A DNA stretch of 64,000 bases, from NCBI GenBank assembly GCA_030695905.1, contig JAUYOL010000004.1:2874-66873 (forward strand), given 5' to 3'. The notes beneath the pieces are model-generated. The model was not told the origin of the DNA, did not search any database, and saw only the letters and a program-made list of their open reading frames with translations. Every line of letters begins with the position of its first letter. Position 1 is the first letter of the stretch. The DNA comes from Candidatus Omnitrophota bacterium. Its GTDB lineage: Bacteria > Omnitrophota > Gorgyraeia > 2-01-FULL-45-10. Shown here in pieces: positions 4,788 through 31,646 of the stretch. The position numbers and the translations under genes are program-made.

Positions 4788-4791
4788 TTTT

Positions 4792-5168: not shown

Positions 5169-5175
5169 AATATTT

Positions 5176-5777: not shown

Positions 5778-5792
5778 TAATATAGATCGGAG

Positions 5793-5987: not shown

Positions 5988-6006
5988 TAAGCGGAGTATC
6001 TGTAGT

Positions 6007-6891: not shown

Positions 6892-6896
6892 CAATT

Positions 6897-7283: not shown

Positions 7284-7323
7284 ATTTTAATAGCATAAGC
7301 ACAGTTTTAAGGATTTTCAGTTC

Positions 7324-9033: not shown

Positions 9034-9042
9034 ATAATATTT

Positions 9043-11864: not shown

Positions 11865-11867
11865 AAA

Positions 11868-15384: not shown

Positions 15385-16481
15385 AGGTTTTAGTCGCTTG
15401 CGGAGGGTCGGGCGGGCATATATTTCCGGCTATAGCGCTTACGCAGGGCCTGAAAGAGAGAGATAAAACTATAGAATTATTGTTTGTCGGAAGCAATAAT
15501 GTCCTGGATAAACGTATATTCGAAAAGGAGCACCTTCATTATTCTTTGCTATCTTCCAACAAATTGCCGTATAAAGCATCCATGAAAACTATAATATTCT
15601 TCGTCAAACTATTTTTTGATATAATAAAATCGTTCTTTATAGTTATAAAGCATTCTCCCGACGCCGTTATAGGTTTCGGCGGTTATGTGTCAAGTCCTGT
15701 AATATTCGCGGCATATATTTTAAGAGTGCCTACAGTGATTCATGAACAGAATGTTGTGCCCGGCAGGTCGAATAGCGTCTTATTCAGGTTTGCGGACAGG
15801 ATAGCTGTAAGCTTTGAGGAAACGAAAAAATATTTGGGCCGATTCAGCACCAAGGCCGTATTTACAGGGAATCCTATCAGAGCCAATCTGTTTAAGGACG
15901 ACAAGGCGGAAAGCATAAAAAAATTCGGGCTTGACGCCGCGAAGTTTACGATTCTTATTATAGGCGGAAGCCAGGGCGCGCATAGTCTAAACAAAAATTT
16001 TTTACAGGCAATGGCAAAGCTCGACACGCAGAAGAGTTCGCTATTGCAGATAATACATATAACCGGCATAACAGATTATGAGTGGGTGAGCCGGGCGTAT
16101 GAAGAAATCGGCATCGAGCATAGGGTATTCTCTTTTATCGATAATATAGAGCAGGCTTATAGCGTATCCGATCTTGTAGTGACGAGGTCCGGCGCTTCGG
16201 CGATATTTGAAATAGCGTATTTTGGCAGGCCCATGATACTGGTTCCGTATCCATTTGCGATGAGCCATCAGGCGGAGAATGCGAAGGTATTTTCCAGAAA
16301 TGGGGCGGCGATACAGATAGATGAAAAAGAGATGTCGCCGGATATCGTAAAGAACAGGGTCGAAAGTCTTTTAGATAACAGGGCAGTTCTCGATCAGATG
16401 GCTAAAAGGGCGAAGGATTTAAGCGTTCCGGACTCATCATATAATCTTGCGGGCGAAGTTTTAAAAATTGTAAAGGGGTAA
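15381..16481 (+). CDS. murG: UDP-GlcNAc:lipid I GlcNAc transferase MurG
   Basis: MKVLVACGGSGGHIFPAIAL is the GT28 N-terminal motif. The C-terminal GT-B domain is also present. Confidence 0.9.
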   Translation: MKVLVACGGSGGHIFPAIALTQGLKERDKTIELLFVGSNNVLDKRIFEKEHLHYSLLSSNKLPYKASMKTIIFFVKLFFDIIKSFFIVIKHSPDAVIGFGGYVSSPVIFAAYILRVPTVIHEQNVVPGRSNSVLFRFADRIAVSFEETKKYLGRFSTKAVFTGNPIRANLFKDDKAESIKKFGLDAAKFTILIIGGSQGAHSLNKNFLQAMAKLDTQKSSLLQIIHITGITDYEWVSRAYEEIGIEHRVFSFIDNIEQAYSVSDLVVTRSGASAIFEIAYFGRPMILVPYPFAMSHQAENAKVFSRNGAAIQIDEKEMSPDIVKNRVESLLDNRAVLDQMAKRAKDLSVPDSSYNLAGEVLKIVKG

Positions 16482-16488
16482 TTATTAA

Positions 16489-17862
16489 ATGATATTAGAA
16501 AAAAAGAAGATGCATTTTATCGGTATAGGCGGTATAGGCATGAGCAGCATAGCAATTATACTATTGAAGATGGGGTATAAGATTTCCGGATCGGATTTAG
16601 AGTCAAACAGCCTTACCGAAAAGTTGAAAAAATTGGGCGCGGATATTTTTATCGGGCACAGCGAGGGTAATGTTGGGCCGGATGTGGAGATAGCGGTTTA
16701 CTCCTCATGTATAAATAATGCAAATCCCGAGATAGTCCAGGCAAGGCAGCGCGGTATCCCTATAGTAAAAAGGGCCGAAGTATTAGGGGAATTGCTGAAC
16801 AGTAAAAAAGGCATAGCTATAACGGGTACGCATGGAAAGACCACAACCACCTCTCTTATTTCGGTGATGCTTGAAAACGGCGGACTCGACCCTACCGTTA
16901 TAATAGGCGGAGAAGTAGCGCTATTCGGCAGTAACGCCAAATATGGCAACGGGGAATTTCTCGTTGCCGAAGCGGATGAGAGCGATGGCTCATTCATTTA
17001 TTTAAAGCCATTTTATTCCGTAATAACAAATATAGAAATGGAACACGTGGATTACTATGGGACGCTTGAGGATTCGATAACCGCGTATGCCGCTTTCGCG
17101 AATAATACAAAGAAGCAGGGGGCATTATTTTACAATAATGACGACGAAAACATAAAGAAGATGCTTAAAAATTTTAAGGGTAAATCAGAAAGCTTTTCGT
17201 TGTATAAAGGGGCGGATATATATCCTCATGAAATAAAGATGAGCGAATTTCGTTCGTCATACCTGTGTGTCTATAAAAATGAAGTTCTCGGCAGGGTATT
17301 TTTAAAAATTCCGGGCAGGCATAACATACTTAATAGCCTTGCCGCGATACAGGTAGGTTTAAAGGCCGGGCTTTCGTTTGAAAAGATAACCCAGGGCATT
17401 CAGGATTTTACCGGCACAAAAAGGCGTTTTCACTTAAGGGCTGATTGCGAAGGGGTAATGCTCATAGACGATTATGCGCACCACCCTACAGAGATACGCG
17501 CCGTACTTGAGGCATGCGGTAATTGGAAGGGGAGGCGGCTTGTGGTGATATTCCAGCCGCACAGGTATTCGCGCACGAAGTTCCTTGCGGAAGAGTTCGG
17601 CCGCTGTTTCAAAGGCTGCCATAAGCTTATATTGACAGACATATATGCGGCCAGCGAAGAACCGATAGAGGGGATCTCTTCCAAAGTTATTTATGACAGA
17701 GTGAAAAAGCATGGTCCGGATGATGTAATAATGCTGGGTAAAAAAGAGATAGCCGATCATATTATGAAATCGAAGAAAAGCGGCGATATGATATTGGTGT
17801 TGGGCGCGGGAGATATAAAGGATATTGCGAATGAACTTTCCGAAAAACTTAATAAAAGGTGA
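16489..17862 (+). CDS. murC: UDP-MurNAc:L-alanine ligase MurC
   Basis: Has IGIGGIGMSSIA and GTHGKTTTTSLI motifs. Confidence 0.9.
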   Translation: MILEKKKMHFIGIGGIGMSSIAIILLKMGYKISGSDLESNSLTEKLKKLGADIFIGHSEGNVGPDVEIAVYSSCINNANPEIVQARQRGIPIVKRAEVLGELLNSKKGIAITGTHGKTTTTSLISVMLENGGLDPTVIIGGEVALFGSNAKYGNGEFLVAEADESDGSFIYLKPFYSVITNIEMEHVDYYGTLEDSITAYAAFANNTKKQGALFYNNDDENIKKMLKNFKGKSESFSLYKGADIYPHEIKMSEFRSSYLCVYKNEVLGRVFLKIPGRHNILNSLAAIQVGLKAGLSFEKITQGIQDFTGTKRRFHLRADCEGVMLIDDYAHHPTEIRAVLEACGNWKGRRLVVIFQPHRYSRTKFLAEEFGRCFKGCHKLILTDIYAASEEPIEGISSKVIYDRVKKHGPDDVIMLGKKEIADHIMKSKKSGDMILVLGAGDIKDIANELSEKLNKR

Positions 17863-18730
17863 TTTAAGGGAACTCGAGGCGCTGTCCAGGCACACATCCT
17901 TTAAAATAGGCGGTCCGGCCGCTTTATGGGCACAGCCAAAGGATGTCAGTGAGTTAAAAAAGGTGGTGCTCTTTGCCAAAGAGAACAAGATCCACACATT
18001 TGTTATTGGCGGAGGCACAAATGTGCTTGCAAGCGATAAAGGTTTTAATGGGATAGTGATCCATCTTGGCTCACCCGAATTCAAGAAGGTATCCATAAAG
18101 GGTACGACCTTGAAGGCTGGGGCAGGATCCGCTACACCCGGACTGGTAAGGCTAAGCTGCGGTAAAGGTTTAAGCGGGCTTGAGAGCCTTGTCGGGATTC
18201 CCGGGACGATAGGCGGCGCGGTATATATGAATGCCGGCGGATGGTCGAGCCCGTTATACAAGAATATAGGCGACTATGTCAGCTCCCTTAAGGTAATGGA
18301 CTATAATGGTCGTTTAAAGACGCTTGAAAGAGAAGACATCGAATTTGGATATAGGAGATCCAGTCTTTCAGACTATATAATAACAGAGGTAACGTTGAAA
18401 CTTGGCAGAGAGGATAGTTCGGCGTTAACATCGAGATGTTTTAAATTCCTGAAGATGAAAAAAGAGAAACAGGTTCTTGATATGCCAAGCGCAGGATGTG
18501 TTTTTAAAAACCCTAAAGATTTTCAGTTCACTACCGGGCAGATGATAGACACTCTGGGCCTTAAGGGCCGCAGGGTTGGCGGCGCCGAAGTATCCGAAAA
18601 ACATGCTAATTTTATAATCAACAGGAATTCCGCCACCTCGGAAGATGTATTGAAGCTTATAGATTTTGTAAGCAAGAAGGTCATGGATAGTTACAAGGTA
18701 CCGCTTGAATTGGAGATCAAGATCATATGA
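17825..18730 (+). CDS. murB: UDP-N-acetylenolpyruvoylglucosamine reductase MurB (start uncertain between 17825 and 17831)
   Basis: FAD-binding FKIGGPA and GGGTN motifs are present. The gene overlaps the murC 3' end. Confidence 0.85.
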   Translation: MRMNFPKNLIKGDLRELEALSRHTSFKIGGPAALWAQPKDVSELKKVVLFAKENKIHTFVIGGGTNVLASDKGFNGIVIHLGSPEFKKVSIKGTTLKAGAGSATPGLVRLSCGKGLSGLESLVGIPGTIGGAVYMNAGGWSSPLYKNIGDYVSSLKVMDYNGRLKTLEREDIEFGYRRSSLSDYIITEVTLKLGREDSSALTSRCFKFLKMKKEKQVLDMPSAGCVFKNPKDFQFTTGQMIDTLGLKGRRVGGAEVSEKHANFIINRNSATSEDVLKLIDFVSKKVMDSYKVPLELEIKII

Positions 18731-19653
18731 CGCGGGCGAAGTTCGGCAGGATAGGAGTGCTGGCGGGCGGGCCGTCGAACGAAAGAGAGATAAGTCTGCG
18801 TTCAGGCGAAGCCGTCTATAACGCTCTTAAGGGTGAGGGGATCGACGCTATATTTCTGGATATAAAAGACGATATACATGATGTGGTGAAAAGGAACGCT
18901 GTAGATGTAGCGTTTATAGCCTTACACGGCAGGTTTGGCGAGGACGGTACCGTGCAAAAGATGCTGGAAGACGCGCGTATTCCTTATACGGGATCCGGAC
19001 CAGAGGCATCGGCCCTGGCGCTCGATAAGATAGCTTCCAAAGAAGCCTTCGTAAAAAGCGGTATTCCTGTCCCCAGATATATAGCATTCGAAAAGAACCG
19101 ATTCTCTTCTACTGACGCGGATGGTATCGGGTATCCTTTGGTGGTCAAGCCGCGGTTCGAGGGCTCGAGCATAGGCTTATCGATAGTTAAAGACAGTAGC
19201 CTGTTAAAAGAGGCGCTCGAAAAAGCGTTTAAATATGGCGATGTTGTGATGCTGGAGGAATATATACACGGCAGAGAGCTCACGGTAGGCATTCTCGACG
19301 ATAAGGCGCTGCCGGTTATAGAAATAGTCACGAGAAATAATGTCTATGATTATGAGGCAAAGTACAAGAACAACGATACCAGATATATCGTTCCGGCCGA
19401 GATAGGCCCGGATGCGCAAAAAAAAGCGAAAGAGCTTGGCGTAATGGCGCACAACGCGTTGGGTTGCAGGTCCTTTTCGCGTGTCGATATCATAATGGAT
19501 GATAAGGGAGAGATGTTTGTGCTGGAGGTTAATACGATACCGGGAATGACCCAGCGCAGTCTCTTACCGAAAGCTGCCCAGGCTATAGGTTTGCGTTTTA
19601 ACGAGCTTTGTGTTAAAATCCTTGAAAATACATTATCGGGAGCGAAAAAATGA
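18727..19653 (+). CDS. ddl: D-alanine--D-alanine ligase
   Basis: Has the ATP-grasp fold with LHGRFGEDGTVQKMLE and EVNTIPGMT motifs. Confidence 0.9.
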   Translation: MTRAKFGRIGVLAGGPSNEREISLRSGEAVYNALKGEGIDAIFLDIKDDIHDVVKRNAVDVAFIALHGRFGEDGTVQKMLEDARIPYTGSGPEASALALDKIASKEAFVKSGIPVPRYIAFEKNRFSSTDADGIGYPLVVKPRFEGSSIGLSIVKDSSLLKEALEKAFKYGDVVMLEEYIHGRELTVGILDDKALPVIEIVTRNNVYDYEAKYKNNDTRYIVPAEIGPDAQKKAKELGVMAHNALGCRSFSRVDIIMDDKGEMFVLEVNTIPGMTQRSLLPKAAQAIGLRFNELCVKILENTLSGAKK

Positions 19654-20453
19654 CGGTAAGAAGACAGAAAAAAAATAAGAAGATGCAGATGCCTAAGGCT
19701 ATAGAGGGCCTTAAAGAATATCTTATTAAGAAGGTGGGTATTATAATAGTCTCTGTGGTATCCGTAGCTTTAGTATGGGCCTTGACTACGGCATTTTTTG
19801 AGAAGAGCGACTATTTCAGGCTCAGAGCCGTTGAAACTAAGGGCGCCCAGGACGCAAGCCTTGCCGGTATAAGAAACGATATTTTGAAGCAATATAAGGA
19901 CAGGAACCTATTCAGGATAGATATAAAGGCCATCGCCAAAAGCATCGAACCGAAGTATCCCGACGCCAAAGAGATAGCGGTAAAGAGGGTATTGCCGGAT
20001 AAATTATTGCTGGATCTGAAATTTCGCAGGCCCGTCGCGCTTTTAGGTAACGGCCAGGTGTACCCTATAGACAGGGAAGGCGTGATACTTGTCAATATAA
20101 ACTCTATGAAATTAAAAGATTTTCCGATAATAAGAGGCATAGACCCACGGCTCGCCGGCAAGTCTTATAAGAAAAACGAGTCGAAGAATCTGGTAGTTGC
20201 GCTTAATCTTCTTGATGAGATAAGAAGGACCAGGTTTTTGGAAAAATATAATGTTCGCCTTGTTGACGCGGGCGATGTAAAGAGCCTTTCTTTTTATTTG
20301 GGGGATGGCGGCCCTGCCGTGATAATAGGGCATGAAGATTTTAGGGAGAGGCTGGCTGTATTAAAGGATACATTGCGCGATCCCAGGCTTGTGTTAGAAA
20401 AGATAAATTATATCGACGTAAGATTTAATAATGTTGCTATAAGTCCAAAATGA
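19650..20453 (+). CDS. ftsQ: Cell division protein FtsQ (TM plus POTRA domain)
   Basis: Has an N-terminal TM and a POTRA-like FRLRAVETKG segment, sitting between ddl and ftsA. Confidence 0.75.
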   Translation: MTVRRQKKNKKMQMPKAIEGLKEYLIKKVGIIIVSVVSVALVWALTTAFFEKSDYFRLRAVETKGAQDASLAGIRNDILKQYKDRNLFRIDIKAIAKSIEPKYPDAKEIAVKRVLPDKLLLDLKFRRPVALLGNGQVYPIDREGVILVNINSMKLKDFPIIRGIDPRLAGKSYKKNESKNLVVALNLLDEIRRTRFLEKYNVRLVDAGDVKSLSFYLGDGGPAVIIGHEDFRERLAVLKDTLRDPRLVLEKINYIDVRFNNVAISPK

Positions 20454-21520
20454 GCAAATCTACTATAATAACCGGTTTGGATATAAGTTCATCAAAAGTT
20501 TCCACGTTGGCTATGGAAATTTTTGGCGATGGCCATTCCGCGGTTCTTGCTTATGAAAGCCAGCCGTCAAAAGGCGTTTCCAGGGGGGGATTTTCCGATA
20601 TAGCCCAGGCGTCAAATTCGGTTGCAAAGGTTTTGACGAGACTGTGCGAGAAGATAGGTAGGCCCCCCGATAATATATATGCTAACGTAAGCGGCGACTC
20701 AATAAGAGCCGAGAGGTCGAAGGGGATGGTGCCTATCTCTTCGAGAGGCCGAGAGATTACGCAGTCCGACATCTCGCGCTGTATAGACGCGGCCAGCACG
20801 ATAAGGCTTACGTTCGACAGAGAGATCATACATAAGATAGTCCTGAACTTCTCGATAGACGATCAGTCGAGCATAAAGAACGCATTGGGCCTTTACGCGT
20901 CACGCTTGTACTGTGAAGTGTATATGGTAACGGCCAATCTTAACCATATTCAGAATATGTATAAGTGTGTGAATGACGCGGGGTATGATTTAAAAGAGGT
21001 TGTATATTCCGGTGTTGCGGATGGTGCCAGTCTTCTGGAGGATCCATGGAAAGACGAGGGGGTGGCTCTTGTGAATATAGGCGCATCCATTACCGAGCTT
21101 TCGATATTTTCAGGCGGAGCGCTGACATTTCTCGACGTACTTTGCTCAGGTGCCAATGATATAAAAGGACCATTAAAAGATAGTGTTGAATTTAGCAGCA
21201 TAACATCACGCCTTAAATCCGATATAGAAGAATTCTCAAAAAAAGGCAGCGGGATAAAATCGGTCGTTATTGCCGGCGGCCTTGCGCTTTCGGAAGGTAC
21301 CGCCGAATGTCTGGAAGAGAGGCTCGGTTATCATGTAAGAATGGGCACCGTAAAGAATGTCCATGGAAACATTTCCAGCACAGACAGCCTGCGGGCTGCT
21401 ACAGCGATAGGCTTAGCCAGATACGCACTTGGTCAATATCAGCCCAGGGCGATGCAGGCGAGAAATTTTGTCCAGAACATATCTAACAGAGTGGTAGAGA
21501 TATTCAATAATTATTTCTAA
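20450..21520 (+). CDS. ftsA: Actin-like cell division protein FtsA (356 aa, short C-terminus)
   Basis: N-terminal GLDISSSKV matches the FtsA GLDIGTSKI phosphate-1 motif. It has an actin/Hsp70 fold with ALVNIGASITELSIF and the 1C subdomain pattern. It sits at the canonical position after ftsQ. Confidence 0.8.
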   Translation: MSKSTIITGLDISSSKVSTLAMEIFGDGHSAVLAYESQPSKGVSRGGFSDIAQASNSVAKVLTRLCEKIGRPPDNIYANVSGDSIRAERSKGMVPISSRGREITQSDISRCIDAASTIRLTFDREIIHKIVLNFSIDDQSSIKNALGLYASRLYCEVYMVTANLNHIQNMYKCVNDAGYDLKEVVYSGVADGASLLEDPWKDEGVALVNIGASITELSIFSGGALTFLDVLCSGANDIKGPLKDSVEFSSITSRLKSDIEEFSKKGSGIKSVVIAGGLALSEGTAECLEERLGYHVRMGTVKNVHGNISSTDSLRAATAIGLARYALGQYQPRAMQARNFVQNISNRVVEIFNNYF

Positions 21521-21537
21521 AATTAGGAGAGCTTAAG

Positions 21538-21981
21538 ATGCTTTACACCGGCGAGAAAAGGCATTTTATAAGGCATCCTATCTGTTATCCGCTTGAATTT
21601 GAACACGCCCCGAAGAAAATCTCGGAAAAGACCAAGACCCTCAATGTAAGCGAAGGCGGCCTGATGTTTTTATCCAAATACGCGCTTAAGCGCGGTGAAT
21701 TGATAATATTAAAGATGCCTATGCAGAATAAGATGTTCAAAGTCAAGGGCAAGGTCATGCATATAACCAAAGACAGGGATAATCCCAGCTTTTTTAATGT
21801 AGGAGTGTCATTTTATCGCTATTCTGACGCTTTTAAAGTAAAGCTTATAGAACAGTTATATCTGATAGATGAATACAGGATACTGCGATCTCTTCAGCTG
21901 GGCTATGAGATTTCGATGCATAAGGCATCGGAGGAATGGGTCAAACGATATTCCAAAAGATTTGCGCGGTTATATTGGTAG
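21538..21981 (+). CDS. PilZ-domain protein (predicted c-di-GMP receptor), 147 aa
   Basis: Both PilZ signature motifs are present: RxxxR (RHFIRH) and D/NxSxGG (NVSEGG). It is tightly coupled (17 nt, RBS AGGAGAG) to the ftsA stop. Confidence 0.7.
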   Translation: MLYTGEKRHFIRHPICYPLEFEHAPKKISEKTKTLNVSEGGLMFLSKYALKRGELIILKMPMQNKMFKVKGKVMHITKDRDNPSFFNVGVSFYRYSDAFKVKLIEQLYLIDEYRILRSLQLGYEISMHKASEEWVKRYSKRFARLYW

Positions 21982-22001
21982 TCTAATTATGAGGCAGCCA
22001 A

Positions 22002-22826
22002 ATGAAATATTTTGCGGTAGATAAATTTAAATGCGTCAGGTGCGGCGCATGCATAGCAGTTTGCCCGATAAAGATCTTAAAGATAGATGAAGCAAGCCGC
22101 CTTCCCGCTATGGTTAACAGGGGAGATAAGATATGCATAAAGTGCGGACACTGCATTACGGTATGTCCGCATAGAGCTATCTCTATGCAGCATATGCGCG
22201 CGGAGAGCCACCACCCGTTAAGACATGATTGGCGCATAACACCGGAAAAAGTGGAGCAACTATTAAAAGGGCGAAGAAGTATTCGTAACTATAAAAATGA
22301 GGCGGTGGACAGGGAAAAACTGAAAAAAGTTATCGATATAGCGCGATACGCGCCATCGGGGATAAATAGACAGCCGGTAAGATGGGGAATAATATACTAT
22401 AAAGAAAGGGTAAGACGACTTTCGGAAGTAGTTATAAAGTGGATGCGCTTCCAAATGTCGATAGATTCGCCGCTTGCAAAGTCCATGCGCATGAAGCGTA
22501 TAGTAGCCGCATGGGAGAATCATAATGACTGGATATGTCGCGGCGCTCCCCATGTCGTCATAGCTTACGCGCCAAAAAATGATTTAAGCGCCGCTCAAGA
22601 TACTACCGTTGCCCTCACATATTTTGAAATTGCCGCGGCGTCGATACACCTGGGCACTTGTTGGGCGGGATATCTGGCCATTGCGATAAATATGAGCCCT
22701 GAAGTGCGCAGATTTGTATTCTTGTCGAGCAGAATGGCATGTTTTGGCGCTATGATGGTGGGTTATCCCAGATTCAGTTATCATCGAATCCCGATCCGCA
22801 ATAAGCCGCATATTATATGGCGGTAA
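22002..22826 (+). CDS. Fusion of a 2x[4Fe-4S] ferredoxin domain and a nitroreductase-family flavoprotein
   Basis: Has two CxxCxxCxxxCP motifs (CVRCGACIAVCP and CIKCGHCITVCP). These are followed by nitroreductase-fold motifs (RRSIRNY and APSGINRQPVRW). Confidence 0.75.
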   Translation: MKYFAVDKFKCVRCGACIAVCPIKILKIDEASRLPAMVNRGDKICIKCGHCITVCPHRAISMQHMRAESHHPLRHDWRITPEKVEQLLKGRRSIRNYKNEAVDREKLKKVIDIARYAPSGINRQPVRWGIIYYKERVRRLSEVVIKWMRFQMSIDSPLAKSMRMKRIVAAWENHNDWICRGAPHVVIAYAPKNDLSAAQDTTVALTYFEIAAASIHLGTCWAGYLAIAINMSPEVRRFVFLSSRMACFGAMMVGYPRFSYHRIPIRNKPHIIWR

Positions 22827-22843
22827 ATAGGAGATAGAATAAT

Positions 22844-23629
22844 ATGCCATTTATGCAGTCCGTATTATTTACGATACCAACGCCTGTATTGTGTCTTTTA
22901 ATTGTCGGAGGGTCTGTGGCTATATCTGTGGGCGCGTTGCTCGTAGTCCGATCATTTGTTCCTCACCACAGGTTGAAACAACATAATGACGTAACAGGCT
23001 CTGTATTTGCTACCGTCGGGGTACTTTACGCGGTATTACTTGCATTTGTTGTAATCGCGGTGTGGCAGGACTTTGATAAGGCTATCATTAATGTGCAAAG
23101 AGAGGCAAACTGTCTTGTGGATCTTTATAGGGATGCCGAAGCTTTTTCGCCCGATTTTAGAAGCCAGGTGCGGGGACTGTTAAAGGACTATGCGAATGCT
23201 GTTACTGGTGAAGAGTGGAAGTCTATGGAAAGAGGCCAGCCCAGCATGCGCGTTACGGAGATAGTGAAGAATGTGTGGCTTTTATATAGCTCTTATATGC
23301 CTAAGAATATTACCGAACAAACCTTTTTTGAAGAATCCGTACGCAAATTAAATGAATTAGGCGAATCGCGCCGGATGCGAATTATGTCTTCGCGTAGCGG
23401 TGTTCATCCCGTACTGTGGTTTGTGCTGGCGGTAGGCGGGATAGTTACCATGATCTTCATATCTTTTTTCGGCGCGGAAAACCTAAGAGCGCAAATTATT
23501 ATGGCGTTTCTTCTCGCCATGCTGGTGGGCCTTATACTATTTACGATCGCCGTTATGGATTATCCTTTTACCGGCGGCGTATCTGTATCTTCAGAAGTAT
23601 TTAAGTCAATGGCGCCATGCGTGGAATAG
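22844..23629 (+). CDS. Hypothetical integral membrane protein (about 4 TM; resembles the DUF4239 family)
   Basis: Has two hydrophobic helices at each end flanking a soluble central segment. The family assignment is recalled and unverified. Confidence 0.45.
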   Translation: MPFMQSVLFTIPTPVLCLLIVGGSVAISVGALLVVRSFVPHHRLKQHNDVTGSVFATVGVLYAVLLAFVVIAVWQDFDKAIINVQREANCLVDLYRDAEAFSPDFRSQVRGLLKDYANAVTGEEWKSMERGQPSMRVTEIVKNVWLLYSSYMPKNITEQTFFEESVRKLNELGESRRMRIMSSRSGVHPVLWFVLAVGGIVTMIFISFFGAENLRAQIIMAFLLAMLVGLILFTIAVMDYPFTGGVSVSSEVFKSMAPCVE

Positions 23630-24138
23630 TTGTTTTGGCGCTGATATATTTACTCAACCCCGTATTTGCGGATGCCGCAACCGATAAGGAGACAGATATG
23701 AAACTTACCAGTCCGGCGTTTGAAGACAATTCGAATGTGCCATCCAAATTCACCTGTGAGGGGCAGGATGTAAACCCTTCTCTTGTTATCGAAAATATTC
23801 CGTCCGGGACAAAAAGCCTGGCATTAATAGTGGACGATCCTGACGCGCCGATGAAGACATGGGTTCATTGGGTAGTGTATGATATAGCTCCTGTAAATAA
23901 GATAGATGAGAATAGCGTACCCGGCAAACAGGGGGTCAATGATTTTGACAGGATGGATTGGGGAGGGCCATGTCCTCCGTCGGGAACACACCGGTACTAT
24001 TTCAAGCTATATGCGCTGGACAAGATCCTGGGCCTTAAAGAGGGTGTTGGTAAAGCAACTTTAGAAAAATCCATGGAAGGGCATATAATTGCCAGAGCCC
24101 AACTGGTCGGATTATATAAACTTGGCCCCAAAAAATAG
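23617..24138 (+). CDS. YbhB/YbcL-type PEBP family protein, secreted
   Basis: Has a signal peptide followed by the PEBP motifs DDPDAP and WVHWVVYDI, and GPCPPSGTHRYYFKLYALD. Confidence 0.8.
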   Translation: MRGIVVLALIYLLNPVFADAATDKETDMKLTSPAFEDNSNVPSKFTCEGQDVNPSLVIENIPSGTKSLALIVDDPDAPMKTWVHWVVYDIAPVNKIDENSVPGKQGVNDFDRMDWGGPCPPSGTHRYYFKLYALDKILGLKEGVGKATLEKSMEGHIIARAQLVGLYKLGPKK

Positions 24139-24165
24139 TTTTAAATAAAATTTTAGGAGGCACTA

Positions 24166-24528
24166 ATGTCTAAGCATAGGATTATGGCCGTAATTATTAT
24201 CCTTTTTTTGGCAGCGCTATTTTCTGTAGTGCCATCTTACTCTCAAGATGACAATCCCCCTATATGGGATAGGCGCGGCAGTGATCCTATAGTTAGGACG
24301 ATCGATGGCAAGGTAATATCGGTTGACCCGCAGGATTCGACGATTACGGTGAAGATGGTGGAGGCGCTCGTAATTTCTGTTCCATCTTCAGCCAGCGTTA
24401 CTAATAAAGATGGTTTTAGCATACAGTTGTCGCAGATAAATCCCGGCAATTATGTTATGGTGGAATATTATGACGACAAGTCAGGCAAGCATATAGCCAG
24501 GGGAATTAATGTCGAATACGGCGATTAG
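24166..24528 (+). CDS. Small secreted hypothetical protein (120 aa)
   Basis: Has a signal peptide (MAVIIILFLAALFSVVPSYSQ) and an RBS (AGGAGG). I recognise no family. Confidence 0.5.
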   Translation: MSKHRIMAVIIILFLAALFSVVPSYSQDDNPPIWDRRGSDPIVRTIDGKVISVDPQDSTITVKMVEALVISVPSSASVTNKDGFSIQLSQINPGNYVMVEYYDDKSGKHIARGINVEYGD

Positions 24529-25327
24529 GCTGATAATAACCGCAGCACTTATTCTGGCCACATCTATTTTCACGCGACCTGCTTTTTCTCAGGAAGAAAC
24601 CGAATATAAAAAATTCAAACTCGAGGACGCTTCTTGCGACGTAGGTGTGCGTTATAAGAATACTCCGCAAGGCCTGATCGTCGGTATCTGCGCCATCGCG
24701 ACCGGCAAGGGGGCAGAATTCCGAAAATGGAGCGTATCCGAAATAAAAATTCGCGTAGGCGATAAAAGATTAAGGCCGGACAAGGACGGCAAGTCCTATG
24801 TTACTGAAGAATCGCTTTTCAGAGTGCCTGGAGCTGTTATATTCGCCGCGATAGGCGCGTTTGGGGAATATGGCGGAAGTAATTTTAATAATAATTTTTC
24901 AAAAGTGGGAATGGCGCTCGGCTTGGGCCTTATAGCCTTACAGGCAAAAGGCGAGATAACGGGTGAACGCTGTGTATTTTATATACCCAAAGAAGTTGCC
25001 GAAAAGATAGAGGAAGGCAAAGATAATATTGAAATTGTCGTAGAGAATGAGGGCCTGCATATTAAAGAAAATATAAAGATAGGGCTTGTTATACCTACAG
25101 GCGATACTGTGAAGAAATATAATTTTGACAATATGAATGAAGACGAGTTATCAAATAGGATGGACATAATCAGATCCGAGATAGTTTCGCTTGAAGAGCG
25201 GCAATCGTCATATAAATATGGCCAAGATCCGCAATACGACGCTATTCAAAAGAAGATAGAGGGTCTTGAAACAGAGCGTGGTCTCGCCTACAACGCATGG
25301 TTCGAAAAAAGGCATGGACGAGATTAG
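24509..25327 (+). CDS. Secreted hypothetical protein (272 aa)
   Basis: Has a signal peptide and a glycine-rich hydrophobic segment. I recognise no family. Confidence 0.5.
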   Translation: MSNTAIRLIITAALILATSIFTRPAFSQEETEYKKFKLEDASCDVGVRYKNTPQGLIVGICAIATGKGAEFRKWSVSEIKIRVGDKRLRPDKDGKSYVTEESLFRVPGAVIFAAIGAFGEYGGSNFNNNFSKVGMALGLGLIALQAKGEITGERCVFYIPKEVAEKIEEGKDNIEIVVENEGLHIKENIKIGLVIPTGDTVKKYNFDNMNEDELSNRMDIIRSEIVSLEERQSSYKYGQDPQYDAIQKKIEGLETERGLAYNAWFEKRHGRD

Positions 25328-25583
25328 TTACAGCAAAAAACAGGACGCATATTTTCTTGAGCATGAAGCGCTGTGCAAGCGATGCGGAAGGTGTTGCGGC
25401 GCCGATACGGCAGAACCTTGCTCAAACCTCGTCAAAGATCCAAGCGGTAAATTCTATTGCAAATCCTACGAAAATAGACTAGGGCTTCAGCGCACAATCT
25501 CCGGCCGCACCTTCACATGTGTCGATATAAGAGATGTCCTCGCCAAAGGCCTTCCATACGAAGGCTGCGGCTACGCTGCCTGA
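25314..25583 (+). CDS. YkgJ/UPF0153 family Fe-S/zinc cluster protein (CxxCxxCC motif)
   Basis: Has the CKRCGRCCG signature plus downstream Cys residues. I chose the ATG 25314 start because the longer ORF start overlaps the upstream gene. Confidence 0.6.
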   Translation: MDEISYSKKQDAYFLEHEALCKRCGRCCGADTAEPCSNLVKDPSGKFYCKSYENRLGLQRTISGRTFTCVDIRDVLAKGLPYEGCGYAA

Positions 25584-25605
25584 AAATTTGACATCCCACT
25601 TCTGC

Positions 25606-25634
25606 TTGACTTTTGACGGCATTTGTGATATCTT
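25606..25634 (+). promoter_or_regulatory. Putative sigma-70 promoter (TTGACT, 17-nt spacer, TATCTT) upstream of yggS
   Basis: It lies in a 70-nt gap that is the first real intergenic break after the dcw block. The -10 is weak. Confidence 0.35.
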
Positions 25635-25653
25635 ATCCCGTCATTAAAACCTT

Positions 25654-26325
25654 ATGATAGCCGATAACTTAAGAGACGTAACGCTAAGAATATCAAGGTG
25701 TTGCGAGAAGTCTGGCAGGTTCGCATCGAGCGTTAAGCTGGTATGCGTTTCCAAGCAGGCATCCATAGACCAGATGAGAGAAGTTATGGGCCTTAATCGT
25801 AGGGATTTTGGCGAGAATAGACTCCAGGATGCCATTGTTAAGTATAAGTCTATAGGTGATAGGGCGATATGGCATCTGATAGGGCACCTGCAGACGAACA
25901 AAGTTAAAGATGCTGTAAAAATATTCTCGCTTATACATTCCGTAGATAGCGTCCGCCTGGCTAAAGAGATATCCAAAGAGGCGAATAAGATAGATAAAAT
26001 ACAAGATATACTCATCCAGGTCAATACATCGGGGGAGATGAGTAAATTCGGCATTGCTCCGGGGGAAGTTTTAAGTTTAGTTAGGGAAATTAGTTTATAT
26101 CCTAATATTAATATATTAGGCCTTATGACTATAGCCCCTGAAGTGGATGATCCCGAGAAGGTTAGGCCATATTTCAGGAGATTAAGACAGCTTAGTGATG
26201 AAATAGCGGGCTTACAGCTTACAGCTTATAGCCTACAGCTTTCGATGGGCATGACAAACGATTTTGAAGTTGCCATAGAAGAGGGCGCGACGATGGTGCG
26301 AATAGGGAGGGCGATATTCAAATGA
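25654..26325 (+). CDS. yggS: YggS family pyridoxal-phosphate homeostasis protein (alanine-racemase N-terminal fold)
   Basis: Has the KLVCVSKQ lysine motif, the length of a TIM-barrel, and conserved context with proC and yggT. Confidence 0.85.
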   Translation: MIADNLRDVTLRISRCCEKSGRFASSVKLVCVSKQASIDQMREVMGLNRRDFGENRLQDAIVKYKSIGDRAIWHLIGHLQTNKVKDAVKIFSLIHSVDSVRLAKEISKEANKIDKIQDILIQVNTSGEMSKFGIAPGEVLSLVREISLYPNINILGLMTIAPEVDDPEKVRPYFRRLRQLSDEIAGLQLTAYSLQLSMGMTNDFEVAIEEGATMVRIGRAIFK

Positions 26326-27137
26326 TGAATAAAAAGATAGGGATTATCGGCTGCGGCAATATGGGCGAAGCGATCCTTGGCAGACTCGTTAACGTAATGG
26401 AGAAGAGCACCTCTATTATGGTCAGCGAGTTCGACGCCAAGAGAAGAGATTATCTTCAGGGTAAATATAAGATGATAATCGAAATAGATAACAACGAAAT
26501 CGTTAAATTCTCCGACGTTATTATACTCGCGGTGAAGCCTAAAGATATCGATGGCTTATTGAAGCAGGAAGTATGCTGCGGCGTTTCAAAAAATAAGCTT
26601 ATAATCTCAATAGCGGCCGGAATTACAATAAAACATATCGAAGATATGGTAGGAAAAGATGTGCCGGTTATAAGGGCTATGCCTAACCTGGGCGCTATAA
26701 TCGGCCATGCAGTGACAAGCTTGAGCGCGGGAGAGTCGGTGAACAAAGAAGATATCGAGCTTGCCAAAAATATATTTTCTCTTATAGGAGACGTTGTAGA
26801 GGTTGATGAGAAATTAGTGGATGCCGTTACGGCAGTAAGCGGGAGCGGGCCGGCATATTTCTTCTATTTTGTGGAATCGCTTTATGAAGTGGCACAAGAG
26901 CTAAAACTGCCGCCTGGAATAGCGAAGGCGCTTGTTATTAAGACGGCCCTTGGAAGCATAAAATTGCTTGACGAACTTAAAGAAGACCCCGCGGCCTTAA
27001 GGAAAAAGGTTACATCAAAGGGCGGGACGACAGAAGCGGCATTCAAGGTGCTGGAGTATAAAAAAGTAAAAAATATAATCAAGGACGCGGTAAAGGAAGC
27101 CTGCAAGCGTTCGAAAGAAATATCTAAGGGGAAATAA
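26322..27137 (+). CDS. proC: Pyrroline-5-carboxylate reductase
   Basis: IGIIGCGNMGEAIL is the Rossmann motif. The C-terminal P5CR dimerisation domain (SGSGPAYFFYFVESL) is present. Confidence 0.88.
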   Translation: MMNKKIGIIGCGNMGEAILGRLVNVMEKSTSIMVSEFDAKRRDYLQGKYKMIIEIDNNEIVKFSDVIILAVKPKDIDGLLKQEVCCGVSKNKLIISIAAGITIKHIEDMVGKDVPVIRAMPNLGAIIGHAVTSLSAGESVNKEDIELAKNIFSLIGDVVEVDEKLVDAVTAVSGSGPAYFFYFVESLYEVAQELKLPPGIAKALVIKTALGSIKLLDELKEDPAALRKKVTSKGGTTEAAFKVLEYKKVKNIIKDAVKEACKRSKEISKGK

Positions 27138-27141
27138 CCAT

Positions 27142-27441
27142 ATGTTCGTAGCGGGTAATTTTGTAGTGGCGATCGCCACAATATTGGATTACATCCTGAC
27201 AATAGCGAATTGGTTGATAATAATAAGGGCTCTTATAAGCTGGGTCAATCCGGATCCATACAATGTGATAGTGCGGTTTTTATACAAGACGACGGAGCCT
27301 TTGCTGGCTCCTTTTAGAAGATTTCTGCCGGCATATTCTATAGGTATAGATCTATCGCCCATATTTGCGCTCTTGGTAATATGGTTCCTGAAATTATTTT
27401 TGGTAAGAACTCTATACGGTTTCGCTATGAGATTGGGATAG
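27142..27441 (+). CDS. yggT: YggT family membrane protein
   Basis: A 99-aa 2-TM protein with the YGGT signature region (IIIRALISWVNPDPYN). Confidence 0.8.
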   Translation: MFVAGNFVVAIATILDYILTIANWLIIIRALISWVNPDPYNVIVRFLYKTTEPLLAPFRRFLPAYSIGIDLSPIFALLVIWFLKLFLVRTLYGFAMRLG

Positions 27442-27451
27442 GAAGGATTTT

Positions 27452-28321
27452 ATGGCTGGAAAGATTGGTATCATAGGCGGAAGCGGTTTTTATCACATAG
27501 ACGGCATAAAAGATATTAAAGAGGTGAAGGTAAAGACGCCTTTTGGGGATCCGTCCAGTGAATTTATAACCGGTGGTCTGGAAGGTAAAGAAGTCGTATT
27601 TTTGGCAAGACACGATAAGGGCCACAGGATCCTTCCGAGCGAAATAAATTACCGTGCCAATATATACGGGATGAAGAAGCTCGGCGTTGAGAGGATAATA
27701 TCCGTGTCCGCATGCGGAAGCCTTAAAGAGGAGTTGAAGCCACTCGACATAGTGATACCTATGCAATTCGTAGATAGGACAAATTACGGCCGACAGATGA
27801 CGTTTTTCGGCAGCGGTATAGTGGCGCATATACAGTTTGCCGAGCCTATATGCCCGCATCTATCCAAGGCGCTGTACGAGGCGGGAATGGCCCTGGGAGC
27901 CAATATGCATCTGGGCGGCACATATTTAAACATGGAGGGGCCGCAATTTTCCACAAAGGCGGAATCTTATCTCTACAGGTCATGGGGGATGGATATAATC
28001 GGTATGACAAATTTAGCGGAAGCTAAGCTTGCCAGGGAAGCCGAAATTTGTTACTCGACACTCGCTTGCATTACGGATTACGATTGCTGGCACATGGATC
28101 AATCCGTAGAGTCAGTATCTATAGAGATGATAGTGCAGAATCTTTGCAAAAATGTGGATAAGTCAAAAGGCATAATCAAGACGGTATTGAAGAAATTGGG
28201 CAACGAACGAACCTGTGTATGCGCGTCAGCGCTTAAGGATTCTATCGTAACGAGGCCTGAATCTATACCTCAAAAAACGAAGAAGGATTTGGATCTGATA
28301 ATTGGAAAATATATTAAATAA
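27452..28321 (+). CDS. mtnP: S-methyl-5'-thioadenosine phosphorylase (PNP/MTAP family)
   Basis: Has IGIIGGSGFY and the MTAP-type active-site region (FLARHDKGHRILPSEINYRANIYGMKKLGVERIISVSACGSL). Confidence 0.85.
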   Translation: MAGKIGIIGGSGFYHIDGIKDIKEVKVKTPFGDPSSEFITGGLEGKEVVFLARHDKGHRILPSEINYRANIYGMKKLGVERIISVSACGSLKEELKPLDIVIPMQFVDRTNYGRQMTFFGSGIVAHIQFAEPICPHLSKALYEAGMALGANMHLGGTYLNMEGPQFSTKAESYLYRSWGMDIIGMTNLAEAKLAREAEICYSTLACITDYDCWHMDQSVESVSIEMIVQNLCKNVDKSKGIIKTVLKKLGNERTCVCASALKDSIVTRPESIPQKTKKDLDLIIGKYIK

Positions 28322-28322
28322 G

Positions 28323-31043
28323 ATGGACTACAAAAATACATTAAATCTACCGAAGACGGATTTCCCGATGAAGGCGGATCTGCCCAATAGGGAGCCGAAG
28401 TTTGTGAAGCATTGGCAGGATATAGGCCTTTATGAGAAGCTGCGCAAACTTTATAAAGGAAAGAAGAAATTTATTCTTCATGACGGGCCGCCATACGCTA
28501 ATGGCAATATACACATGGGCCATGCTCTTAATAAAATATTGAAGGATATAGTGATACGGTATCAAACTATGCGCGGGTTCGATTCGCCATATATCCCCGG
28601 ATGGGACTGCCACGGGCTTCCCGTAGAGCATCAGCTCTTCAAGGAATTGAAGATGACGAAGTACGATATCGACCAGGTAAAGTTTAGGAAGAAAGCGTAT
28701 GACTACGCCATGAAATATGTGGCCATCCAGAGGGAGCAATTTAAGCGTCTTGGAATAATGGGTGGATGGGAAACGCCGTACCTGACTCTTTCAAGGGATT
28801 ATGAGGCCCAGATCGTAAGGTCATTTGGCAAACTGGTGGACAAAGGCTACGTATACAAAGATCTAAAACCGGTCAACTGGTGCGCTACCTGCGAAACGGC
28901 ATTGGCGGAAGCGGAGGTTGAATATGAGAATAAAACCTCGCCGTCCATTTATGTAACGTTTAATCTTAAGGATAATGTCTATTTTATCATCTGGACCACG
29001 ACACCATGGACATTATTGGCAAACGTCGCGATAGCTCTTCACCCTGAAGCTGAATATGTATTTGCGGATGTCGCCGGAGGCAAGACATATATACTCGCTA
29101 AAGCGCTTCTCGATAATGTTATGGCCAAGATCGGGATCAAGGATTATAAGATATCGAAGACCGTTAAAGGTAAAGAACTCGAAGGCCTTGAGGTGAAGCA
29201 TCCTTTTATAGATAGAAAAGCGAAGGTGGTTACCGCAAGCTACGTTTCTATGGAAGATGGCGCCGGCTGTGTTCATACCGCGCCCGGCCACGGGCAGGAA
29301 GATTATATGACGGGTAAGCGCTATAACCTGCCGACTATAATGCCCGTAGACTCAAAAGGTAAATTTGACAGTTCTTGCGGCGAATTCAGCCATATGGATG
29401 TTATAAAAGCGAATAAGCCTATACTTGAAAAACTGGCATCCATTAAACATCTTTTGCATGAAGAAGAGGTCACGCACTCATACCCGCATTGCTGGCGCTG
29501 CAAGAGGCCGATCATCTTCAGGGCAACGGAGCAGTATTTTTTAAGAATAGACCATAAAGATTTAAGAAAGCGCATGCTTAAGAGTATATCTTCGGATATA
29601 AAATGGATACCGCAGGTCGGAGAGTCAAGGATCTCCTCAATGGTAGAGAACAGGCCCGACTGGTGTTTGTCGCGTCAACGGTACTGGGGCGTGCCTATAG
29701 TGGCTTTCTATTGCACTTCATGCAACGAAGTGCTGTTAGACGCAAAAGTTATAGAACATGTGGCGTCTATCTTTGAAAAGGAGAGCGCGGATGCCTGGTT
29801 TATCAATAAAGAAGAGGATCTAATACCAGCGGGAACAAAGTGTAAAAAATGCGGCAAGTCCGGATTCAGAAAAGAGACCGACATCCTTGACGTATGGTTC
29901 GATTCCGGTATAAGCCATCAGGCTGTATTGAAAAATAACAAAGATCTTGATTATCCATGTGAGCTGTATCTGGAAGGCTCCGATCAGCACAGGGGATGGT
30001 TTCAGTCGGCTTTGATAACCGGTATGGGCATCGACGAAAGACCGCCCTATAAGAGCGTACTCACGCATGGTTTTGTTGTAGATGGCGAAGGTAAAAAGAT
30101 GTCGAAGTCTTTGGGGAACGTAATAACGCCCGAAGAAGTCATGAAGAAATATGGCGCAGATATATTGAGATTATGGGTAGCGTCGAGTGACTATTCGGAA
30201 GATATAAGGATGTCGGGTGAGATATTGACGCGCCTGGCAGATGCCTATAGAAAGATCCGCAATACATACAAGTATCTATTGAGTAACTTATATGACTTCG
30301 ATCCTGAAAAAGACAAAGTCGAGTACAAGAATATGCTCGAGATAGACAGGTGGATACTGAATGAACTCGCAGCTCTTGTAAAAGACTCGAGTCGTAACTA
30401 TGAGACTTACGCGTTCCATAAAGTGTATCGGGATGTGTATAATTTCTGCGTTAATGAAGTCTCGTCTATATATCTTGATGTGTTGAAGGACAGGATGTAT
30501 ACATTTTCAAAGTCTTCTCCGGAGAGGAAAAGCGGCCAGACCGCGATGTTCGAGGTGCTTTCGGCGCTATTAAAGATAATGGCGCCTCTGTTAGCGGTTA
30601 CGACCGATGAAGCATGGGGATATCTGTCGGTCAAAGATAAAAAAGAGTCGGTTCATTTAGAGTCATGGCCGGATGAGAGCATATGTCAAAAGTGGATAGA
30701 TAAAGAGCTTGAGGATAAATGGAAAGTCCTGGCGGGTGTCAGAGAAACGGTATTGAAGAAGATAGAAGAGAAGCGTTCCCGGGGAGATATAGGCGCGAGC
30801 CTCGAGGCGGCGGTTACAGTGGTGACCAACGATGCTAAGACAATGAAGATATTGTCAGAGGATAAAGATTTCCTGCGGTATCTATTTATAGTTTCACAGG
30901 CCAATATTGAAGAAGGTGAGCCGGACATATTGGTTCAGAAGGCCGCAGGGATAAAGTGTTCAAGATGTTGGAATTATAGCGACACGGTAGGCATGGATAA
31001 GGCCCATCCTACACTTTGTGAAAGATGCATAAAGAATATTTAG
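28323..31043 (+). CDS. ileS: Isoleucine--tRNA ligase (start taken at ATG 28323)
   Basis: Has HMGH and KMSKS motifs. The N-terminus MDYKNTLNLPKTDFPMKADL is canonical. A C-terminal zinc finger (CSRCWNYS...CERC) is present. Confidence 0.95.
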   Translation: MDYKNTLNLPKTDFPMKADLPNREPKFVKHWQDIGLYEKLRKLYKGKKKFILHDGPPYANGNIHMGHALNKILKDIVIRYQTMRGFDSPYIPGWDCHGLPVEHQLFKELKMTKYDIDQVKFRKKAYDYAMKYVAIQREQFKRLGIMGGWETPYLTLSRDYEAQIVRSFGKLVDKGYVYKDLKPVNWCATCETALAEAEVEYENKTSPSIYVTFNLKDNVYFIIWTTTPWTLLANVAIALHPEAEYVFADVAGGKTYILAKALLDNVMAKIGIKDYKISKTVKGKELEGLEVKHPFIDRKAKVVTASYVSMEDGAGCVHTAPGHGQEDYMTGKRYNLPTIMPVDSKGKFDSSCGEFSHMDVIKANKPILEKLASIKHLLHEEEVTHSYPHCWRCKRPIIFRATEQYFLRIDHKDLRKRMLKSISSDIKWIPQVGESRISSMVENRPDWCLSRQRYWGVPIVAFYCTSCNEVLLDAKVIEHVASIFEKESADAWFINKEEDLIPAGTKCKKCGKSGFRKETDILDVWFDSGISHQAVLKNNKDLDYPCELYLEGSDQHRGWFQSALITGMGIDERPPYKSVLTHGFVVDGEGKKMSKSLGNVITPEEVMKKYGADILRLWVASSDYSEDIRMSGEILTRLADAYRKIRNTYKYLLSNLYDFDPEKDKVEYKNMLEIDRWILNELAALVKDSSRNYETYAFHKVYRDVYNFCVNEVSSIYLDVLKDRMYTFSKSSPERKSGQTAMFEVLSALLKIMAPLLAVTTDEAWGYLSVKDKKESVHLESWPDESICQKWIDKELEDKWKVLAGVRETVLKKIEEKRSRGDIGASLEAAVTVVTNDAKTMKILSEDKDFLRYLFIVSQANIEEGEPDILVQKAAGIKCSRCWNYSDTVGMDKAHPTLCERCIKNI

Positions 31044-31169
31044 GGTCTATTTCGCTGTTCAACATGTATAATTCGGGTACAGCTTCGTAGGACTTCGCTA
31101 CTGATTCCTGCGAAGCCCTACCAGTTATGATAGGTTGAAGGGCGGAGCAGAAAAGGAGAATAAGGTAAT

Positions 31170-31646
31170 ATGAAGAAAAAGAATAAGATGATCAAGAAGA
31201 AAGCGGTAAAAAGAATGAAAGTAAAAGCGAAGAACGCTGTGAAGAAAGCAGAGAAGACGTTTAAGATTAAAAAAATGTCAAGCAAGGATCTGAAGAAATA
31301 TAAAGAGCTTCTTCTCAAGGAACGCGAGAAGATCGGGAGCGGCATTAATCACATAGCCCAGGATACGCTCAAGACATCCCAAAGGGACGCGTCGGGGGAT
31401 CTTTCCGGTTACTCATTTCATATGGCGGATATGGCCAGCGACAACTATGAAGTAGAATTCTCTTTAGGCAGAGCCAGTGACGAACAGGATGTTCTCTACT
31501 CTATAGATGAGGCATTGAAGAGGGTGGCGGATGGCACATACGGCAATTGTCCGCAGTGCGGAAAACAGATACCGAAAAGACGGCTTGACGCCATACCGCA
31601 TACGGAACTTTGTATAGCTTGCCAGTCCAAGAATGAAAGCAAATGA
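31170..31646 (+). CDS. DksA/TraR family C4-type zinc-finger protein with a lysine-rich N-terminal extension
   Basis: The C-terminus has CPQCGKQIPKRRLDAIPHTELCIAC. A good SD (AAGGAG) precedes ATG 31170. Residues 1-35 are K-rich. Its position between ileS and lspA mirrors ylyA in Firmicutes. Confidence 0.75.
   Translation: MKKKNKMIKKKAVKRMKVKAKNAVKKAEKTFKIKKMSSKDLKKYKELLLKEREKIGSGINHIAQDTLKTSQRDASGDLSGYSFHMADMASDNYEVEFSLGRASDEQDVLYSIDEALKRVADGTYGNCPQCGKQIPKRRLDAIPHTELCIACQSKNESK

Follow-up and report, generated by a model that had tools for sequence, protein, structure and literature searches.

A dcw cluster that ends at ftsA without ftsZ in Candidatus Omnitrophota, and its FtsA lacking the core of subdomain 2B

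The canonical dcw (division and cell wall) cluster ends with ftsQ-ftsA-ftsZ and continues, in its Bacillus-type form, with ylmE(yggS)-sepF-ylmG(yggT)-...-ileS-ylyA-lspA. In a 64 kb stretch of DNA from Candidatus Omnitrophota (the whole of which is referred to as the window), the dcw cluster ends at ftsA, and seven other genes stand where ftsZ would be expected. This raises the question whether ftsZ has been moved elsewhere, whether one of these genes has taken its place, or whether the lineage, which belongs to a phylum of the PVC (Planctomycetes–Verrucomicrobia–Chlamydiae) group, divides without FtsZ. The answer which we consider likely is that the locus is an ordinary dcw end of a phylum that lost ftsZ: the seven-gene block would have come later and replaces nothing, FtsA was kept while the core of its subdomain 2B was lost in a large subclade, and division would proceed without a Z-ring. 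The FtsA, PilZ and YggS proteins of the window are exact matches to MDP3790603.1, MDP3790604.1 and MDP3790611.1 from a 105,498-bp contig of a Candidatus Omnitrophota metagenome-assembled genome in GenBank, and the numbering there (FtsA ...603, YggS ...611) agrees with seven intervening genes.

The lack of ftsZ after ftsA, as stated in the initial annotation, was confirmed. With the FtsZ sequences of Escherichia coli and Bacillus subtilis as queries, tblastn found no match in the 64 kb window with an E value below 1. To either side of the dcw region, the rest of the window contains no cytoskeletal gene. Related loci were collected by an alignment-based scan of one genome per species of the Genome Taxonomy Database (GTDB), which yielded 26 loci from Omnitrophota, each extending up to 10 kb to either side of ftsA; a scan with a single FtsA query had given no loci. 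Together with four further loci (L028–L031), obtained from the nearest canonical FtsAs, the set comprises 30 related loci. All 30 dcw ends stop at ftsA without ftsZ. No FtsZ-like sequence was found at E ≤ 1 in the 31 fetched loci (about 410 kb), that is, the 30 related ones and the window's own locus (L027). The ftsA gene is located directly downstream of ftsQ in 26 of the 30, which are all those with a recovered upstream side and an FtsQ match passing the filter.

Published surveys point in the same direction. For 421 Omnitrophota genomes, Seymour et al. (2023; PMC10066038) report in a supplementary note that ftsZ is absent throughout the phylum; the only exception shares 89% identity with an archaeal protein and is read there as contamination or recent transfer. 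In the examined part of the accompanying annotation table, TIGR01174 (ftsA) occurs three times, TIGR00065 (ftsZ) and K03531 never. The same supplementary passage claims lineage-wide absence in Omnitrophota also for ftsY and ribosomal protein L30. Pende et al. (2021; PMC8178401) place Omnitrophica in a figure legend among the FtsZ-less PVC phyla, together with Planctomycetes and Chlamydiae. Their data table shows FtsA without FtsZ or SepF for three Omnitrophica genomes, a fourth lacks all three proteins, and SM23_29 is entered with two FtsAs; the sole FtsZ-positive entry is ‘Omnitrophica bacterium OLB16’. This organism is now classed in Candidatus Hinthialibacterota (NCBI taxonomy), which removes the only FtsZ-positive Omnitrophica case and answers the question left open by Rivas-Marin et al. 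(2016) whether the absences are real. A preprint on 176 complete Omnitrophota genomes (bioRxiv 10.64898/2026.06.07.730766) does not mention FtsZ or FtsA in the accessible parts of its text and supplement. The absence of ftsZ after ftsA in Omnitrophota is thus already published and has been little noticed. What the present analysis adds is the state of FtsA.

The ftsA gene (20450–21520, + strand) codes for a protein of only 356 residues; its start codon overlaps the stop codon of ftsQ (20450–20453). The protein scores above the cutoffs of the family models TIGR01174 (198.3 bits, cutoff 175.85) and SHS2_FTSA (73.5 bits, cutoff 25.4), and the SHS2 domain (subdomain 1C) is kept at residues 82–161. 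The Pfam FtsA domain remains below its cutoff (28.5 versus 31.8) because the C-terminal half is shortened. In its AlphaFold model (predicted local distance difference test, pLDDT, 81; predicted template modelling score 0.80), the best structural match in the PDB is Vibrio FtsA (7q6i, template modelling score 0.82), with PilM as the second-best group at about 0.6. PilM, a type IV pilus protein related to FtsA, shares with the window protein a length of about 350 residues and an actin-like fold. However, the PilM model TIGR01175 gives only 15.8 bits (cutoff 133), the gene in the window follows ftsQ, and FtsA structures match better. In GenBank, MDP3790603.1 is named ‘hypothetical protein Q8R38_00980’, and several other short-form FtsAs from Omnitrophota are likewise labelled hypothetical. 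Automated surveys can therefore miscount or undercount FtsA in this phylum.

The missing part, about 55–65 residues, lies between the phosphate-2 hairpin/helix and the strand that precedes the GG adenosine motif. Where subdomain 2B is expected, the model has nothing more than a brief helical link and one long helix, with pLDDT values of 85–95 across the deletion junction. A profile built from 41 homologues aligns to the solved FtsA structures of Vibrio and E. coli in two pieces, skipping chain residues ∼244 to ∼309. Relative to E. coli FtsA (in a sequence with which the stretches displayed in the PDB 7q6d alignment agree), residues 244–271 and 284–304, including R286, are absent. The FtsZ peptide in PDB entry 4A2A is bound at FtsA subdomain 2B, which we take to be the docking site of the FtsZ C-terminus. 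Judged from its sequence, the window FtsA is a protein without this subdomain and hence without the site at which the C-terminal peptide of FtsZ binds. In E. coli, deletion of 2B or of strands S12–S13 stops FtsA from interacting with FtsZ (Rico et al., 2004, summarised by PMC4281207). The engineered E. coli proteins thus lack the same region as the window FtsA. According to that summary, the 2B mutant does not bind FtsZ and shows loss of function and filamentation, whereas the deletion found here is natural and located at the same position in all aligned short forms. In the searchable literature, no description of a retained FtsA with deleted 2B was found.

The short form is widespread. Among the 120 matches listed, close homologues of the window FtsA are 321–381 residues long, nearly all of them 355–363. 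When eight divergent short forms (25–48% identical to the window protein) were aligned with retrieved canonical FtsAs, a gap of about 55 residues fell at a single position shared by all eight. Two groups emerged when 1.84 billion representative proteins were searched: short forms of 344–361 residues, which match in a single stretch and form no fewer than 20 clusters at 50% identity, and canonical FtsAs of 403–436 residues, in which the match is split at profile position ∼243. Every named short-form FtsA is from Omnitrophota.

Other parts of the protein are conserved. In the nucleotide-binding motifs (phosphate-1 DxG, phosphate-2 DxG, adenosine GG), D11, G211 and G276–G277 are invariant in the 41 relatives, as are F352, N353, Y355 and F356 close to the carboxy terminus. 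The C-terminal residues 343–356 (NISNRVVEIFNNYF) have a hydrophobic moment of 0.59, which is within the top 1.4% of shuffled sequences (0.28 ± 0.13) and similar to that of the E. coli membrane-targeting sequence (0.57). The C-terminus is thus a predicted amphipathic membrane-targeting helix.

What, then, is the seven-gene block between ftsA and yggS? In the deeper relatives L011, L012, L013, L014, L016 and L022, the FtsAs of which are 45–53% identical to that of the window, yggS begins roughly 66–490 nt after ftsA with nothing in between. It is followed, as far as the contigs continue, by proC-yggT-mtaP-ileS-dksA-lspA (lspA is reached in L012, L013 and L022). A gap of 0.7–4.2 kb with variable content is found in the window, in L001–L005 and L007–L009 (FtsA 61–71% identical) and in L010 (55%). 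In L001 it contains the PilZ gene alone. L002 and L005 have PilZ, two secreted proteins, a protein with a CxxCxxCC motif and two further open reading frames (ORFs), and L003 and L007 have the two secreted proteins, the CxxCxxCC protein and further ORFs without PilZ. L008 contains PilZ, a ferredoxin-nitroreductase, a PEBP family protein, the two secreted proteins and the CxxCxxCC protein. In L004 there is a homologue of the 272-residue family-less protein of the window without its 120-residue partner, and in L010 a tetratricopeptide repeat (TPR) protein. The pair of secreted proteins and the CxxCxxCC protein thus recur in L002, L003, L005, L007 and L008, the ferredoxin-nitroreductase and PEBP among relatives in L008 only, and none of the related loci has the bestrophin-like gene of the window in this place. 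PilZ, 75–82% identical, directly follows ftsA in seven of the nine closest relatives and is in this family more conserved than FtsA itself (61–71%); for ftsA of the nearest relative, protein identity is only 71–74%.

As deeper relatives without ftsZ run from ftsA straight into yggS, ftsZ was lost before the block appeared. The initial annotation had the block occupying the ftsZ slot, and this holds as a statement of position only: deeper relatives that lack ftsZ also lack the block, which is therefore not a replacement. By parsimony, the seven-gene block is presumably a later insertion at a variable, insertion-tolerant spot and unrelated to the loss of ftsZ. As a mobile island it was rejected, with no shift in GC content or GC skew, no meaningful flanking repeats and no integrase or transposase gene.

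The order of the two losses, of ftsZ and of subdomain 2B, follows from the nearest canonical FtsAs. These are 403–409 residues long and have 2B; one cluster is labelled Candidatus Omnitrophica. In L029, ftsA is followed by yggS-proC-yggT-mtaP-ileS, and the last three proteins are 65–68% identical to those of the window. Several points weigh against the reading that we favour. These 2B-bearing FtsAs, too, are located at dcw ends without ftsZ (L028–L031). The loss of ftsZ therefore preceded the deletion of 2B, and a lineage that loses FtsZ need not also lose 2B; the subdomain must serve other functions, for instance in filament contacts. For the source genome, the absence of ftsZ is an extrapolation from phylum surveys of mostly incomplete metagenome-assembled genomes, and a paper from 2025, in which ftsZ is not specifically discussed, groups Omnitrophota with phyla having ‘highly conserved’ dcw genes. 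The phosphate-2 motif DxG reads NxG at FtsA residue 209 (window 21074–21076), as in 27 of the 41 relatives, while Asp is kept in 11; this could point to an ATPase activity that is changed or lost. That the lack of 2B might mark the absence of FtsZ across the whole phylum was considered and rejected, in view of the canonical FtsAs at ftsZ-less dcw ends. The deletion looks like a later loss, in one subclade, of a domain that was no longer needed.

The initial annotation had offered two alternatives, relocation of ftsZ or a lineage dividing without it, and the second is favoured: the organism belongs to the Omnitrophota, the surveys agree, and all 30 related loci lack ftsZ at this place. That ftsZ resides elsewhere in the source genome, the locus being a simple dcw rearrangement, we regard as very unlikely. 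The analysis covered 64 kb of that genome, and dcw clusters are fragmented in some PVC bacteria. However, the surveys of the phylum found no bacterial ftsZ, the gene is missing from the surroundings of ftsA in each of the 30 related loci, and an FtsA without its FtsZ-binding subdomain is hard to square with a working FtsA–FtsZ pair. This evidence for absence from the source genome, published surveys and synteny, is indirect; we consider it strong. An assembly or binning chimera which cut off ftsZ at the ftsA/PilZ junction would be conceivable for a metagenome-assembled genome, yet here it deserves practically no credence: an independent Logan assembly of SRR13727529 has the same gene order from murG to yggT, the ftsA-PilZ junction is common to seven relatives and ftsA-yggS to others, and neither GC content nor GC skew changes at the junction.

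A takeover of the FtsZ role by one or more genes of the block, for example by PilZ, could be argued from their position and from the tight linkage of PilZ to ftsA and its stronger conservation (75–82% versus 61–71%). We hold this to be extremely improbable, since the block is absent in deeper relatives that equally lack ftsZ, its content varies among close relatives, family assignment reveals no cytoskeletal or GTPase fold among its proteins, and flanking repeats and mobility genes are lacking. Finally, the constriction scaffold might be a cytoskeletal protein whose gene is located elsewhere and escaped the marker-gene surveys: a highly divergent member of the tubulin superfamily or one of a different kind, with MreB (used by Chlamydia) or an FtsZ-like family as candidates. 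FtsA would then be only an accessory. The published absence calls relied on standard marker models, and the table of Seymour et al. (2023; PMC10066038), as far as examined, lists mreB, mreC and mreD (K03569–K03571) beside ftsA in at least one genome entry. Against this, a single compact operon has retained the genes for FtsA, FtsQ, FtsL, FtsW and FtsI, and our data contain no positive evidence for such a protein, so that we judge this explanation, too, to be unlikely.

According to the reading preferred here, loss of ftsZ would have brought ftsQ-ftsA next to the former downstream genes yggS-proC-yggT-mtaP-ileS-dksA-lspA. The boundary between ftsA and yggS would then have become variable: the family of the window gained PilZ and next the trio of two secreted proteins and the CxxCxxCC protein, the ferredoxin-nitroreductase and PEBP genes would have been added in the window and its closest relative, and the bestrophin-like gene in the window alone. 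FtsA would have been kept, and a large subclade including the source genome would have shed the 2B core, the docking site of the FtsZ C-terminal peptide. Subdomain 1C of FtsA recruits late divisome proteins in E. coli. In the absence of a Z-ring, membrane-bound FtsA, FtsQ/FtsL and the FtsW–FtsI synthase might organize septal peptidoglycan synthesis. Gene order, synteny and the deletion of 2B with its spread are observations of this study, and the absence of ftsZ from the whole phylum is taken from the literature; FtsA as an FtsZ-independent scaffold we infer from them. PilZ may link cyclic di-GMP (c-di-GMP) signalling to the division machinery, a link that would be restricted to the family of the window. 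One may go further and propose a third kind of FtsZ-independent division in the PVC group, in which a membrane-bound FtsA lacking 2B is the primary scaffold that recruits FtsQ/FtsL and FtsW–FtsI, and PilZ adds c-di-GMP control in the family of the window. We put this forward as a tentative and rather doubtful proposal.

The likeness to Chlamydiae and Planctomycetes drawn in the initial annotation applies in part. All are FtsZ-less PVC lineages, but both of those phyla have also lost FtsA, which is kept here. Chlamydiae, with a septal peptidoglycan ring that depends on MreB, RodZ and FtsK, resemble the window in lacking ftsZ and in having kept peptidoglycan precursor genes together with FtsQ, FtsW and FtsI. 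They differ by the loss of FtsA, which the lineage of the window retains as a conserved protein encoded in the operon. Planctomycetes divide by budding or binary fission, and dcw genes are non-essential in Planctopirus limnophila. There, ftsA has been lost, some orders are without peptidoglycan genes and the dcw cluster is fragmented, whereas in the window mraZ to ftsA is complete and contiguous. Compared with the canonical dcw cluster, the order from mraZ to ftsA and the continuation yggS...yggT...ileS-dksA/ylyA-lspA are the same; ftsZ and sepF are lacking, and proC and an mtaP-like gene are present in the neighbourhood.

In Chlamydiae and Planctomycetes, FtsA disappeared together with FtsZ. 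Omnitrophota retained FtsA, and precisely the FtsZ-binding subdomain was later deleted in a large subclade. Such a natural separation-of-function FtsA bears on the question which activities of the protein (membrane binding, polymerization, recruitment through 1C) are independent of the Z-ring, and the short form is a concrete protein for tests in heterologous systems. Reviews on PVC cell division still treat Omnitrophota inconsistently; the present case corrects this inconsistency and overturns nothing.

The cluster from mraZ to ftsA (5334–21520, all genes on the + strand) is complete and tightly coupled as initially described, the families being supported and most junctions being overlaps or gaps of a few bases. 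It consists of mraZ, rsmH, an ftsL-like gene, ftsI, murE, murF, mraY, murD, ftsW, murG, murC, murB, ddl, ftsQ and ftsA. The first genes are mraZ (5334–5777; TIGR00242, 145.9 bits) and rsmH (6007–6891; TIGR00006, 337.9 bits). The ftsL-like gene (6897–7283) is assigned by its position between rsmH and ftsI, by a transmembrane segment followed by a coiled coil and by a weak match to DivIC (E = 0.025). The gene for the class B penicillin-binding protein (PBP) FtsI (7324–9033) matches PBP transpeptidase families of NCBIfam. NCBIfam equivalogs above cutoff identify murE, murF, mraY and murD (9043–14293), followed by ftsW (TIGR02614, 416 bits) and murG (TIGR01133, 309 bits) at 14290–16481. The genes murC, murB and ddl (16489–19653) have the Pfam domains Mur_ligase, MurB_C and Dala_Dala_lig, and ftsQ (19650–20453) has the POTRA_1 and FtsQ_DivIB_C domains. 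The short ftsA follows (MDP3790603.1; TIGR01174, SHS2_FTSA).

Downstream of ftsA, the number and the families of the seven genes were as initially annotated, except for one label. The PilZ gene (21538–21981, + strand; PF07238, E = 1.7e-10, 41.6 bits, cutoff 22.5) begins with ATG at 21538, 17 nt after the end of ftsA at 21520. The intervening sequence contains an AGGAG ribosome-binding site and no terminator-like site, and the PilZ gene is probably co-transcribed with ftsA. Both c-di-GMP receptor motifs of the protein are intact: RxxxR (R8-HFI-R12, RHFIR) and NxSxxG (N36-VSEGG, NVSEGG). On the same strand follow a gene for a 2×[4Fe-4S] ferredoxin domain fused to a nitroreductase (22002–22826; Pfam Fer4_7, Nitroreductase), a bestrophin-like membrane protein (22844–23629; PF14023, E = 8.9e-69), a PEBP/YbhB-YbcL family protein with a signal-like amino terminus (23617–24138; PF01161, TIGR00481) and two proteins of 120 and 272 residues without family matches, both with signal-like amino termini (24166–25327). 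The last gene of the block (25314–25583; the ORF could start at 25266) encodes a small protein with a CxxCxxCC motif in its translation. It had been labelled YkgJ, an assignment that was not borne out: beyond the motif, the protein has no Pfam match at E ≤ 1, to YkgJ/UPF0153 (PF03692) or to any other family.

The downstream neighbourhood then resumes as initially described, on the + strand, with the difference that the gene between yggS and yggT is proC and not sepF. It comprises yggS, proC, yggT and the mtaP-like phosphorylase gene (25654–28321; TIGR00044, P5CR, YGGT, PNP_UDP_1), followed by ileS, a dksA/traR-type zinc-finger gene (ylyA-like) and lspA (28302–32092), for which the evidence is the translation of ileS and the domains zf-dskA_traR and Peptidase_A8. 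The Logan assembly of SRR13727529 (L027) reproduces murG through yggT including the whole block; as it was obtained independently, the junction is not a binning or assembly artefact.

The genes adjoining ftsA in ftsZ-less loci are repeatedly related to pili or c-di-GMP. Besides PilZ in the window (21538–21981), they include an unrelated PilZ protein encoded on the opposite strand (L028, 11234–11668, – strand), an N_methyl prepilin-type protein and a T2SSE ATPase (L029, 11251–11976; L030, 7679–8779). If the phylum is rich in genes of this kind, this could be mere coincidence. The PilZ gene beside ftsA in L028 was considered as a sign of a deep PilZ–FtsA linkage and set aside as possibly coincidental; it and the PilZ gene of the window are on opposite strands, and their products are only 25% identical over 81 residues.

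The window as a whole contains about 60 genes, and every substantial ORF is on the + strand, an unusually strict co-directionality over 64 kb. GC content is uniform at 0.42–0.47, and GC skew is positive throughout (+0.11 to +0.25). Outside the regions described above are dnaG, rpoD, two tRNA genes, the gene for RNase P RNA and a gene with an RNase H domain; genes for lipid A, Kdo and lipopolysaccharide (LPS) core synthesis with lptC/A and lptB; tig, clpP, serC, serA, purA, uppS, cdsA, dxr and rseP; and a homocitrate/isopropylmalate synthase-like (HMGL-domain) gene. The RNase P RNA (class A, 207.6 bits) is encoded at 4790–5174, directly upstream of mraZ. The tRNA genes, for tRNA-Met (3448–3523) and tRNA-Val (3573–3649), are located between rpoD and a CT398-like gene (3668–4381) upstream of the dcw cluster; the latter encodes a coiled-coil hairpin protein with a C4 zinc ribbon, of a family known from Chlamydia CT398. 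Within the run of lipid A and LPS-core genes, a single ORF (34312–36255) fuses an LpxL-like lipid A acyltransferase domain to an ELM1/PF06258 domain.

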